Source of the DNA: an uncultured Candidatus Saccharibacteria bacterium
Lineage (GTDB): Bacteria; Patescibacteriota; Minisyncoccia; Phycocordibacterales; UBA9973
Assembly (NCBI GenBank): GCA_964591445.1
Contig: CAZQAW010000004.1
Coordinates: 1 to 62,605 of the forward strand
DNA length: 62,605 nt
Direction of reading: 5' to 3'
The position numbers and the translations under genes were made by a program. The notes beneath the pieces were generated by a model that saw only the letters and a program-made list of their open reading frames with translations, made no database searches and was not told the origin of the DNA. This document shows positions 41,730-57,383 of the stretch, piece by piece; position 1 is the first letter of the stretch, and each line of letters begins with the position of its first letter.

Positions 41730-42677
41730 ATGACTAAAAAGATCTTACTCTCAGGCGTCAAGCCTACCGGACGGCCTCATATTGGAAACTATTTTGGCGC
41801 GATGAAACAATTTGTCGATTTACAGAACGATTACCAGGCTTATGTGATGATTGCCGACTTGCACGCACTTACGACGGTGCAAAATACCGAAGAAATGCGA
41901 CAAATGACACGTGACCTTGTTTTGGACTATCTTGCTATCGGTCTTGATCCAGAGAATGTTGTTTTGTTCAAGCAATCAGAAGTCAGCGCTCACGCCGAGC
42001 TTGCGTGGGTCTTTGATTGTATTACAACAATGCCATATCTCATGCGCGCGCATGCATTCAAAGATTCTGAAGCAAAGAATAAAGAAATTAACGTTGGCGT
42101 GTTCAATTACCCAATGCTCATGGCGGCAGATATTTTACTTTACGATGCAGATGTCGTCCCAGTTGGTAAAGATCAAAAACAGCATATCGAATATGCTCGC
42201 GACACTGCGCAGAAATTCAACAATACTTTCAACATAGAACTTTTTAAACTTCCGGAAGATTTGATTATCGAATCTGTCGAAACTGTGCCTGGAACTGATG
42301 GACAAAAAATGTCAAAGAGTTATAAAAACACTATTCCACTTTTTGCAACTGACGAAGAAATTGAAAAGGCTGTGATGGGAATTGTGACGGATTCCGGTTC
42401 AGACATTCCAGAAAACGTCTACGCAATTCATAAACTATTCAGAGATGAAGCAGAATTAAAAGCGCTTTACGAAGAACACAAAGGCAAGTATAAAGCACTT
42501 AAAGATGCGCTAGCAGAAGATATTAAAAACTTTATCAAACCAATGCGAGAGCGAAGAGAAAAGTTCACCAGCCAACCAGATCTTGTAAAGAAAATTATCG
42601 ACCAAGGTAACAAAAAAGCAAACGAAGTTGCACAAGCAAAACTTCGTGAGATTAAGCGGGCTGTTGGGGTCTTATAA
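41730..42677 (+). CDS. trpS: Tryptophanyl-tRNA synthetase
   Basis: SGVKPTGRPHIGNY, YPMLMAADIL, KMSKS. Confidence 0.96.
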   Translation: MTKKILLSGVKPTGRPHIGNYFGAMKQFVDLQNDYQAYVMIADLHALTTVQNTEEMRQMTRDLVLDYLAIGLDPENVVLFKQSEVSAHAELAWVFDCITTMPYLMRAHAFKDSEAKNKEINVGVFNYPMLMAADILLYDADVVPVGKDQKQHIEYARDTAQKFNNTFNIELFKLPEDLIIESVETVPGTDGQKMSKSYKNTIPLFATDEEIEKAVMGIVTDSGSDIPENVYAIHKLFRDEAELKALYEEHKGKYKALKDALAEDIKNFIKPMRERREKFTSQPDLVKKIIDQGNKKANEVAQAKLREIKRAVGVL

Positions 42678-42713
42678 TTTGACACACCACAAATCAAAGC
42701 GTACACTGGTAAA

Positions 42714-42960
42714 TGAATTAGCTATGCCATACAAGTGAGTGCGGGAGGTTTTTTGAGTTTAGTTTTGTATTTTTCATAGTTTTTTTGTTTAGTTGTTTCT
42801 TTCGCTTGAATGGCATTTACAGGCAGATATACTTTATTAGGAAGGATGACCAGGGCGGCAACGTTCTGCAATTCTCAAGATCGGAGTTTGACTCCTTTCG
42901 AGTCCTTACTGAAAGTATGATTTGTACAAAGAGCGGGGGTCTTTTGATCCTCGCTTTTTT
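42714..42960 (+). ncRNA. Candidate structured small RNA
   Basis: Promoter TTGACA-17-TACACT (42679-42707), 15-bp stem around a U-rich loop, GCAA-capped hairpin, terminator 42932-42960. Confidence 0.5.
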
Positions 42961-42992
42961 ATTTGACACTTAACATAAAATTGCTCGGTCAC

Positions 42993-43085
42993 GACCGTAC
43001 CAGGTGCACCGGTTATACGGTCATTCCTCACACCTGAATCTATCCAGAGTATGTTACGTTAATGGCGGCATATTCTGGTTTTTTT
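42993..43085 (+). terminator. Hairpin plus a second terminator upstream of aspS
   Basis: GACCGTA...TACGGTC stem; CCAGAGTATG...CATATTCTGG followed by T7. Confidence 0.6.
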
Positions 43086-43123
43086 ATTTTTCTAAAAAGC
43101 AAACTTATGGTAGAATCACAACT

Positions 43124-44458
43124 ATGTCAGAACGTATATTTATAAAGGATTTGGAGGCTCATACTGGAGCCGAAGTTACTATTTGTGGGTGGATCAACGT
43201 GCGCCGCGACCAGGGGAAAATGGTCTTTTTTGATTTTCGCGATATGTCCGGCTACGTCCAGGGGGTTGTTTTACCGAATCAAACTGAAGCTCTTGAGATT
43301 GCCAAAGAAGCTCGCAGCGAGTGGGTTGTTGAAGTGAAAGGAAAAGTAAACGAACGCCCAGAGCGCAACCGCCAAGCCGACAAACAAAATGGAAACATTG
43401 AACTTGAGGTTCTTGGAATAAAAATTTTGAGTAAAGCACAAGAACTTCCATTTACATCCGACGCAGAACTCAACTTGGACACAATGCTCGACTATCGACC
43501 GCTTACTTTGCGACGAGAGCGCGAGCAGGCGATTTTCAAAACTCAGCATGTAATCCTTACTGCATTTCGTGAATATTTGAATTCACAACATTTTACAGAA
43601 TTTCAAGCGCCGAAGATCGTGGGTGGCGACGCCGAAGGCGGCGCTGGTGTTTTCAAGATTGAATATTTATACGAGCAAGCAGCATATCTTTCTACAAGCC
43701 CGCAACTTCACAAGCAAATGATGGTCGGGCCTTTTGAGCGTGTGTACGCAACCGGTCCGCAATTCCGCGCAGAAAAACATGCGACAACACGACATTTGAA
43801 CGAAATCTCGATGCTCGACTTTGAAATGGGCTTCATCAACGACCATCATGATGTGATGAACATGATTCAAAATACTTTGAAACATGTTGTAAAAAAAGTT
43901 GGGGAAGACGCAAAGCACGCGCTCAACTATTTCAAAATAGAACTTCCACTTACTCCAAAAAAGTTTCCAGCAATGAAGCTTCGTGAAGCACAGGAACTTA
44001 TCTACAAAGAAACAGGTGAAGACTGCCGCAACGAACCAGACCTTGAACCAGCGCACGAACGATGGCTCTGTGAATACGCCGCAAAGAATTTGGAAAGTGA
44101 TTTTATTTTCATAACGCACTACCCAGTTTCAAAACGTCCATTTTACACAATGGAAGATACAGAAGATCCAGGCTTTACAAAAAGCTTTGACTTGCTTTTC
44201 CGCGGCGTAGAAATCCTTTCTGGAAGTCAGCGCGTGCACGACTATGACATGTTGATTGAAAAAATTAAAGCAAAAGGTCTTGATCCAGAAAAATTTGAGT
44301 TTTATTTGATGGCTTTCAAATACGGACTTCCTCCGCATGGTGGCATCGGTATGGGGCTTGAACGTCTGACACAAAAATTCTTGGGCGTAGAGAACATCAA
44401 AGAAGCAACGCTCTTCCCGCGAGACATCAACCGCATCGACCAACGGCTTTCGAAATAG
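43124..44458 (+). CDS. aspS: Aspartyl-tRNA synthetase (archaeal/non-discriminating type)
   Basis: OB-fold VRRDQGK, STSPQLHKQ, FRAEK, YGLPPHGGIGMGLER; ~444 aa without the bacterial GAD insert. Confidence 0.9.
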   Translation: MSERIFIKDLEAHTGAEVTICGWINVRRDQGKMVFFDFRDMSGYVQGVVLPNQTEALEIAKEARSEWVVEVKGKVNERPERNRQADKQNGNIELEVLGIKILSKAQELPFTSDAELNLDTMLDYRPLTLRREREQAIFKTQHVILTAFREYLNSQHFTEFQAPKIVGGDAEGGAGVFKIEYLYEQAAYLSTSPQLHKQMMVGPFERVYATGPQFRAEKHATTRHLNEISMLDFEMGFINDHHDVMNMIQNTLKHVVKKVGEDAKHALNYFKIELPLTPKKFPAMKLREAQELIYKETGEDCRNEPDLEPAHERWLCEYAAKNLESDFIFITHYPVSKRPFYTMEDTEDPGFTKSFDLLFRGVEILSGSQRVHDYDMLIEKIKAKGLDPEKFEFYLMAFKYGLPPHGGIGMGLERLTQKFLGVENIKEATLFPRDINRIDQRLSK

Positions 44459-56171: not shown

Positions 56172-56305
56172 ACAAAAAAACTCCCCAAAACGCCAAGTTA
56201 AAGGGAGCTGATTTATTAAGGTTAAAAAACAATCTACCACTCATGCATCACTGCGGAAGCAATAGAATAAGCTTTAATCTGATTATACGGTCTTTTAACT
56301 TTCCG

Positions 56306-56857
56306 TCAATCATTCCGCTGAACAACTGGCATCTTTCCAGGTATTTGTTTTGAAGCCTCAAGCAGTTTGTACAAAACGCCAACTTCTTCTTCAGTAATAT
56401 TTGGCTGCAACAGAGCTTGTTGAAGCATTTTTACCCCATCTTCTTTTTTAGCAAAAGTGCCGGAATAAAAGTTTGGAGTAGTAAATTGCCAAAGATAAGA
56501 ATTTCCTGCAAGGGCCTTTTTAATTATCGGTTCAAGAGAATATGGATTGAATACTCCGGCAGCCTCTTCCAAACCAAATTCACGGGCCAGCTTCGTCATC
56601 GCTTTAAAGTGAATATCCTCCTCTTCATCAAGACTAAAGGGTAGATCAGAATGATGTACCTGGTTTGTCAATTCATGAAGAAAAAAGAGGTTAAATCCAT
56701 CTTCTTTCAATTTAGTCTTCTTGAGCATTAGCTCCATAATTTGCCGTTTTGTTACATAGGCAATACTCACTTTGTCCGGAGTATAGGCAATGGTGCAAGT
56801 CTTGGTCCCGCCAAGAGTCTCGAAAATAAGTCGAGGATATGTGTTTAAACTTTCCAT
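56306..56857 (-). CDS. Hypothetical protein (AT-rich insert)
   Basis: 183-aa ORF; minus promoter TTGACA-17-TATAAA at 56890-56918. Confidence 0.75.
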   Translation of the reverse strand: MESLNTYPRLIFETLGGTKTCTIAYTPDKVSIAYVTKRQIMELMLKKTKLKEDGFNLFFLHELTNQVHHSDLPFSLDEEEDIHFKAMTKLAREFGLEEAAGVFNPYSLEPIIKKALAGNSYLWQFTTPNFYSGTFAKKEDGVKMLQQALLQPNITEEEVGVLYKLLEASKQIPGKMPVVQRND

Positions 56858-56976: not shown

Positions 56977-57162
56977 ATGAATAAAACTGCTTCAAGGAAT
57001 AAAAGTATTAAAAAAGACTTAAATAGAGTTTGTATAGTATGTAGTAAAAAGCTTAAGATCAAAGTTAAGGCAAATGGCTCTTATACAGGTGGTCATTATT
57101 TCGGGACTGTTACTCCAAAGAATATTGAGTATTGGGAGTGTGGGGAATGTTGTATCCAATAA
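56977..57162 (+). CDS. Small zinc-ribbon protein
   Basis: CIVC...GGHYFG...EYWECGEC. Confidence 0.7.
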   Translation: MNKTASRNKSIKKDLNRVCIVCSKKLKIKVKANGSYTGGHYFGTVTPKNIEYWECGECCIQ

Positions 57163-57194
57163 AAAAAACCGCCAATAAAGTTGGCGGTTTTTTT
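57162..57194. terminator. Bidirectional terminator
   Basis: AAAAAAACCGCCAA-TAAAG-TTGGCGGTTTTTTT. Confidence 0.85.
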
Positions 57195-57195
57195 A

Positions 57196-57354
57196 TTAAC
57201 ACTCTGGAAGAGACAAAAGATTATCTTTACCTGTCCAATCAGGTTTAGTTCGAATATATGGATTACGTCCATATGGTTCTACAACCTCAACCCATGTAAC
57301 TGCTCCACCAACACTTACAAAAAAGCAAATCGGAAGCCGTCTTTTGTATTTTAA
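57196..57354 (-). pseudogene. C-terminal remnant of a DUF3892-like gene
   Basis: Frame reads FFVSVGGAVTWVEVVEPYGRNPYIRTKPDWTGKDNLLSLPEC-stop; in-frame TAA at 57355-57357 upstream and no start codon. Confidence 0.6.
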
Positions 57355-57383
57355 TTATAATCCTAACATTTTCTACTTACAAC

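Follow-up and report, generated by a model that had tools for sequence, protein, structure and literature searches.

The stretch of DNA analyzed here (the window) is the 62,605-nt contig C4 of the genome G000, which is 695 kb (~0.7 Mb) in size, is spread over 10 contigs, and is rated 100% complete. On the plus strand of the window, trpS ends with a TAA stop codon at 42675-42677 (last base, 42677) and aspS begins with an ATG at 43124, leaving a gap of 446 nt between the two genes. Set against a median intergenic gap of 48 nt across the genome, the trpS-aspS gap is unusual for this host. It contains two units, the candidate RNA unit that is the subject of this analysis (42679-42960) and a second hairpin and terminator unit on the same strand (42966-43085; z score of -2.84), which is a separate finding and ends with a terminator, T2, at 43044-43085. 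No convincing promoter was seen for the second unit: a TTGACA sequence at 42963 has no -10 box at 16 to 18 nt, and the -35 box that goes with TAAAAT at 42976-42981 is poor. The second unit may be a back-up terminator or another small RNA, and no internal duplication linking it to the first unit was found. Downstream of both, aspS appears to have a promoter of its own (plus strand, 43108-43126), in which an extended -10 box, TGgTAGAAT, is followed after 7 nt by the ATG at 43124, and a leaderless mRNA is predicted. The aspS genes of relatives show the same order of terminator, extended -10 box, and ATG. Because aspS has its own leaderless promoter, the upstream units are dispensable as an aspS leader.

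The candidate unit opens with a sigma-70-type promoter sequence, P1 (plus strand, 42679-42707), which starts 2 nt past the trpS stop codon and consists of TTGACA (42679-42684), a 17-nt spacer, and TACACT (42702-42707), with 10 of 12 matches. Across the genome, 99 intergenic promoter matches of at least 10/12 were observed, versus 23.8 +/- 4.2 in dinucleotide shuffles (~4-fold), and matches of this quality were ~8-fold denser in intergenic DNA than inside genes. About three in four of the intergenic matches are therefore real and about one in four is due to chance. By the host genome's own promoter statistics, P1 is a credible promoter, and the likelihood that it fires would be about three in four. 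P1 also has the same class and spacing as the promoters of two bona fide RNA genes of the host, those encoding RNase P RNA and the DUF3800-V RNA (TTGTCA/TTGACT, 17 nt, TATACT, at an equivalent distance from the 5' end). A weaker internal promoter-like match, with TTGAAT and TATACT separated by 16 nt (9 of 12 matches), lies at 42806-42833 on the plus strand.

At its other end, the unit is closed by an intrinsic terminator, T1 (plus strand, 42928-42960), in which a 14-bp stem (42928-42959) precedes a U6 tract. With a calculated energy of -20.4 kcal/mol and a z score of -7.4, T1 is predicted to be strong, above chance expectation. T1 is the first terminator downstream of trpS; none lies between the trpS stop codon and T1, and T1 therefore also ends trpS transcripts and is common to both. 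No antiterminator fold competing with T1 was found, the 5' arm of T1 being essentially unpaired when its 3' arm is removed, which gives the unit little resemblance to a switch.

Three parts make up the predicted fold of the RNA delimited by P1 and T1: a U-rich 5' hairpin, a Y-shaped domain that includes a GCAA tetraloop, and the hairpin of the terminator. The 5' hairpin (plus strand, 42724-42816) has a closing stem of 15 to 16 bp around a ~60-nt, U-rich, weakly paired interior (42745-42800). In this stem, the 15 positions of 42724-42738 face those of 42802-42816, all paired except for a single A/A mismatch and including one G-U pair, and the hairpin alone folds at about -20 kcal/mol (z score of -1.66). 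The middle domain (plus strand, 42823-42925) is a long outer stem that carries two hairpins, one at 42851-42868 capped by the GCAA loop (CAGGGCG-GCAA-CGTTCTG; 7 pairs, including 2 G-U pairs) and one formed by GGAGU/ACUCC at 42883-42895; it folds at -32.4 kcal/mol, with a z score of -2.82 on the plus strand versus -0.66 on the minus strand. The window contains 56 inverted repeats of at least 13 nt within 120 nt, and the 42724/42816 stem falls outside the 25 longest listed. In a background of ~400 intergenic windows of 108 nt taken from contigs C1 to C3 on both strands, a z score of -2.8 or lower was reached in 17.7% of the scored windows. Neither the 15-bp stem nor the fold energy is therefore out of the ordinary for intergenic DNA of this host. 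Taken as a whole, the region from 42712 to 42965 folds at -72.8 kcal/mol on the plus strand (z score of -3.2), which is above chance and stronger than on the minus strand (z score of -1.6). An earlier description made from the letters alone (the sequence-only reading) had listed the TTGACA-17-TACACT promoter, a 15-bp stem with one mismatch around a U-rich loop, the GNRA hairpin, and a terminator at 42932-42960. These are indeed present, the promoter at a match level above the shuffled expectation, the terminator with the energy and z score given above, and the stem at a quality that is common in the window.

Covariance searches against Rfam, which the sequence-only reading had put forward as a check, gave nothing at gathering scores when run on the unit, and E values of up to 10 added only terminator-type noise. 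ARAGORN identified neither a tRNA nor a tmRNA in the unit. BLASTN against 60 related genomes found no homologue, the unit is missing from a genome of the same genus, and no other copy was found by BLASTN within its own genome. With no second genomic copy and no phage or plasmid match, a repeat or mobile element was rejected as the identity of the unit. BLASTN and nhmmer searches of 160 trpS loci drawn from genome and metagenome collections also found no homologue, and a single-sequence covariance model run against 100 related genomes and the 160 trpS loci detected only terminator-like or U-rich look-alikes. Exact-pattern scans of genome and viral collections returned unrelated GC-rich genomes or nothing. 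Conservation in the trpS-aspS spacer of relatives, a further check named in that reading, was thus not seen among these 100 genomes and 160 loci, in which the nearest sampled TrpRS is 76 to 79% identical; one 2,657-nt Logan contig encodes an identical TrpRS.

The unit resembles housekeeping RNAs in its size range and in having a stand-alone promoter, as does the RNase P RNA gene of the host. RNase P RNA itself (78.8 bits) and tmRNA are both encoded elsewhere in the genome, which eliminates these two identities. 6S RNA (RF00013) had no match in the whole genome at E values of up to 10, and the predicted fold, with unpaired 5' and 3' ends and no rod with a central bubble, is not that of a 6S RNA. 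The GNRA hairpin and the lack of an SRP RNA match raised the idea of a divergent SRP RNA. However, the GCAA hairpin has an unbroken stem, without the CAGG/AGCA internal loop of SRP domain IV, and neither SRP RNA model (RF00169, RF01854) matched in this genome or in 40 to 41 related genomes. Neither an SRP54 nor an SRP_SPB domain was found in the genome, nor was a DTAGR motif in any frame, and searches for Ffh and FtsY in about 40 relatives returned only P-loop fragments and no true SRP54 GTPase. With Ffh and FtsY lacking from the genome and from 40 relatives, a divergent SRP RNA was rejected; the absence of SRP has already been published for Parcubacteria (PMC4508563).

Many members of the group have aspS downstream of trpS in the same orientation (96 loci). 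The gap between the two genes is shorter than 100 nt at 40 of these loci, 100 to 900 nt at 36, and larger at the other 20, and the content of the spacer varies among relatives, from a mere 0 to 16 nt to a T-box, small ORFs, or a gene for a protein of ~600 aa. In the nearest genomes, G023 (L246), G001 (L247), and G021 (L249), an ABC-exporter-like gene (~600 aa) lies between trpS and aspS; it is not present in the genome studied here. tblastn searches of the gap for aspS, the ABC exporter, and the small ORFs of relatives returned only noise, the one antisense match (E value of 2e-6, with a 446-nt database and 2,380 queries) being of low complexity. With no detectable trace in the gap, a relic of any of these three was rejected.

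In 18 of 82 loci of related Paceibacteria, a minimal Asp T-box is found directly ahead of aspS (for example, at L044:1321-1474 and L065:2837-3007). These leaders have a UGGC bulge and an ultrashort stem I, GAUCC-GGCUGACACCGG-GGAGG, whose hairpin loop presents GAC. The discriminator base of tRNA-Asp is G73, and the bulge fits it. Rfam scores these T-boxes below threshold, at 49.2 and 36.5 bits versus a gathering score of 93. A lineage-specific model (R2), built from the aspS leaders of 13 relatives, scored 27 to 158 bits on the leaders of 18 relatives and ~0 bits within 42678-43123, and the Rfam T-box model had no match in the gap at E values of up to 10. Most of the specifier look-alike GAC (42890-42892) is part of the GGAGU/ACUCC stem, and the next base is a U rather than a purine; the nearest look-alike of the T-box sequence, CAGGTGCACCGG at 43001-43012, is in the second unit, is one G short, and has its bulge on the wrong side. 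Local alignment of the gap to the leader of the closest relative gave a best z score of ~2.6, in T-rich sequence and below the best shuffle. The candidate unit thus shares with the minimal Asp T-box of relatives its position between trpS and aspS, its promoter-to-terminator layout, and a similar length, but a T-box has a T-box sequence, a UGGN bulge, a specifier hairpin, and an antiterminator, and the unit has none of these. A T-box (RF00230) or T-box relic was rejected on these grounds for either unit, the lineage model also giving no match to the second unit when a relic was considered there. As judged by these sequence searches, the aspS T-box is absent from the gap of this genome. The sole match of the lineage T-box model anywhere in the genome is at C6:30063-30289 (plus strand; 32.6 bits), and the genome therefore retains at least one T-box-like leader although aspS lacks its own.

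The sequence-only reading had also proposed a mechanism, in which the U-rich loop acts as an antisense regulator either of A-rich leader mRNAs in trans or of a peptide encoded in cis on the opposite strand. A -10 box ends exactly 6 nt upstream of the start codon in 58 genes, forming a sharp peak with a shoulder at 7 to 9 nt, and an SD-like motif (GGAG, GAGG, or AGGA at -20 to -4) precedes only 29 of 648 genes, counts that are approximate because the gene starts are rough (longest ORFs). From these sequence features, the host genome looks predominantly leaderless. The A-rich DNA upstream of start codons is therefore mostly untranscribed promoter and not mRNA, and if the RNA regulates by pairing, masking of SD or leader sequences cannot be its mode, because the host hardly has any. 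Hfq was not found in the host genome.

We paired the U-rich interior (42745-42800) with the region from -40 to +20 of 648 genes. The lowest energy, -32.0 kcal/mol, was reached by a duplex with the start region of the gene at C7:45561; the minima for 30 dinucleotide-shuffled loops averaged -29.4 +/- 2.05 kcal/mol, and 3 of the 30 reached -32 kcal/mol or better. Start regions were no better partners than gene interiors (means of -15.8 versus -16.1 kcal/mol and best values of -32.0 versus -33.6 kcal/mol). The middle domain gave no target signal above chance, and trpS and aspS ranked in the 30th to 56th percentile. Target prediction against the 5' regions of the genome thus did not bear out the proposal, its best energy not exceeding what shuffled loops achieve, and the likeness of the loop to start regions is compositional. 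On the opposite strand, the reverse complement of the loop does consist of an A-rich stretch followed by an ATG, and the minus-strand ORF of 19 codons that it opens (MKNTKLNSKNLPHSLVWHS) is present, as had been noted. However, this ORF has no minus-strand promoter, no SD sequence, and no -10 box at leaderless spacing. The 19-aa peptide is hydrophilic, and a type I toxin-antitoxin system, in which a small hydrophobic toxin would be expected, was rejected given the hydrophilic product and promoterless ORF. Overall, what stands of the sequence-only reading is a promoter-to-terminator, ORF-poor, plus-strand unit that makes a reasonable small-RNA candidate; its pairing mechanism is not supported.

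The reading that we favor, tentatively and at somewhat less than an even chance, is that the unit encodes a species-specific, separately transcribed, non-coding orphan RNA of ~245 to 250 nt that has its terminator in common with trpS. Transcription from P1 would begin near 42713 and would be stopped by T1 near 42960. T1 would also end trpS read-through transcripts, so that the same sequence would double as the trpS 3' UTR, and the unit would be laid out like a 3'-UTR small RNA transcribed from a promoter of its own. Type I 3'-UTR small RNAs, such as DapZ and MicL of enterobacteria, have their own promoter and use the terminator of the upstream gene. Like them, the unit has a promoter at the very end of the upstream gene, an intrinsic terminator common with the upstream mRNA, and a non-coding span of a few hundred nucleotides. 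Unlike in those systems, no Hfq, no seed-target signal above chance, and no conservation were found here, and the usual mode of SD masking is inapplicable in a host whose mRNAs are mostly leaderless. Of the hallmarks of a trans-acting small RNA, the unit would thus have a promoter and a terminator of its own around an apparently non-coding stretch, whereas an accessible seed with above-chance complementarity to targets was not found. The only mechanistic role that we can defend is that the unit would, together with T1 and T2, shield the leaderless promoter of aspS from transcription arriving from upstream. Beyond this proposed insulation, the unit is a candidate small RNA by virtue of its layout.

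The explanation that competes most directly with an orphan RNA, to which we give roughly half as much weight, is that the unit is non-functional spacer left by a local rearrangement. T1 would then be no more than the trpS terminator, and P1 would be a promoter that arose by chance or survives as a relic and yields a transcript without a role. The wide variation of the trpS-aspS spacer among relatives, where an ABC exporter gene, a T-box, or both occur at this position, fits such a history, as do the restriction of the sequence to this genome, fold scores that lie within the intergenic background, and the expectation that about one in four intergenic promoter matches of P1 quality arises by chance. 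However, no trace of the ABC exporter, aspS, or a T-box was detected in the stretch, a 0.7-Mb genome with a median gap of 48 nt rarely retains 446 nt of junk, and the promoter exactly opens, and the terminator closes, an ORF-free block. We consider it quite improbable that the unit is instead part of a long aspS leader that has replaced the T-box, with transcription from P1 conditionally reading through T1 and T2. A regulatory leader might be expected at this place, given the Asp T-box upstream of aspS in 18 of 82 loci of relatives, and the hairpin at 42883-42895, with its GAC and a preceding GAUC, is faintly like their short stem I; yet the codon of this hairpin is mostly within the stem, the lineage T-box model scores ~0 in the gap and the Rfam T-box model has no match at E values of up to 10, no antiterminator fold competing with T1 was found, and aspS carries an extended -10 box 7 nt ahead of its ATG and no SD sequence, with which translation from a 410-nt leader would be poor. 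The pairing of a stem-presented U-rich loop with A-rich starts in trans or with a minus-strand peptide mRNA is less probable still, and we regard it as very doubtful. The resemblance of the loop's reverse complement to A-rich sequence followed by ATG and the top duplex of -32 kcal/mol at C7:45561 speak for it, but they are offset by shuffled loops that pair as well, the lack of a preference for start regions over gene interiors, genes that are mostly leaderless and without SD motifs, a minus-strand ORF with neither promoter nor SD, and the failure to find Hfq.

Two further explanations would place a gene inside the unit. At the predicted transcription start, 5 nt past the -10 box, is the sequence ATG AAT TAG (plus strand, 42713-42721), and in the frame of this ATG a run of 83 open codons extends from the TAG to a TAA at 42971-42973. 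It is conceivable, but improbable, that this is a decayed leaderless gene for a small membrane protein, of which the promoter and terminator survive while the gene is dead. The ATG follows P1 after 5 nt, as in leaderless genes of the host, where this architecture is the norm; apart from the TAG at codon 3, the 83 further codons are open and include two hydrophobic stretches; shuffling gave an open frame this long in only 0.96% of cases for this frame and in 2.3% when any frame was allowed; and the trpS-aspS spacer of some relatives contains a small membrane ORF (~85 aa). Against this, the codon score of the frame (-0.136, versus 0.248 +/- 0.168 for genes) is below the 5th percentile of real genes, and phenylalanine and cysteine are in excess, at 19% versus 4.7% in the genome and 4.8% versus 0.8%, respectively. 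The frame crosses the terminator, with its stop codon lying past the U tract, and TAG is an ordinary stop codon in the host, used by 126 of 651 genes. No protein homologue of the 83-aa frame was found in a collection of 5.8 billion clusters, and it has no similarity to the small ORFs of relatives. A live small protein is the least probable of the readings considered and very unlikely to be correct. The reading frame would be an ATG ORF of 36 aa at 42810-42920 or a 24-aa form nested inside it (42846-42920), with P1 or the internal TTGAAT/TATACT match as the promoter. T1 begins 8 nt past the end of the ORF, an AGGAAGG motif lies ahead of the inner ATG, and the internal promoter-like match reaches 9 of 12 positions. 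However, the SD-like motif directly adjoins the inner ATG, SD motifs are rare in this host, and neither ATG is at a leaderless distance from a -10 box; in the unit, the only small ORF with a -10 box 6 nt upstream of its ATG is the two-codon ATG-AAT-TAG. The 36-aa ORF has no homologue among 1.84 billion representatives, its single match being a tandem-repeat artifact. From its sequence, then, the unit appears to hold no plausible gene.

Returning to the orphan RNA, its origin might lie in a former leader or small gene that was recycled as RNA. A bolder idea, which we think improbable, is that the trpS-aspS spacer of Paceibacteria is a recurrent birthplace of lineage-specific small RNAs upon the switch of aspS from a T-box to a leaderless promoter, the unit being one such replacement, linked in some way to the supply of Asp-tRNA or AspRS. 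If the RNA is real, it would add one more orphan small RNA in ultra-small uncultured bacteria, whose RNA regulators are almost unstudied. Because Hfq, SD sequences, and mRNA leaders are all missing from these bacteria, small RNAs cannot act in them in the textbook manner. By itself, the unit would be a modest candidate; more useful are the findings that aspS has lost its T-box here, that the genome has a leaderless architecture, and that start-site pairing is rejected. About five other promoter-to-terminator units free of ORFs (longest ORF of <15 codons, no tRNA) were seen in the genome. Two are in the window, both on the minus strand, at 56173-56309 and 57161-57382, and the others are at C1:72853-73029 (minus strand), C2:51494-51581 (plus strand), and C7:55947-56049 (plus strand). 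Going by their layout, these five are possible additional small-RNA genes.
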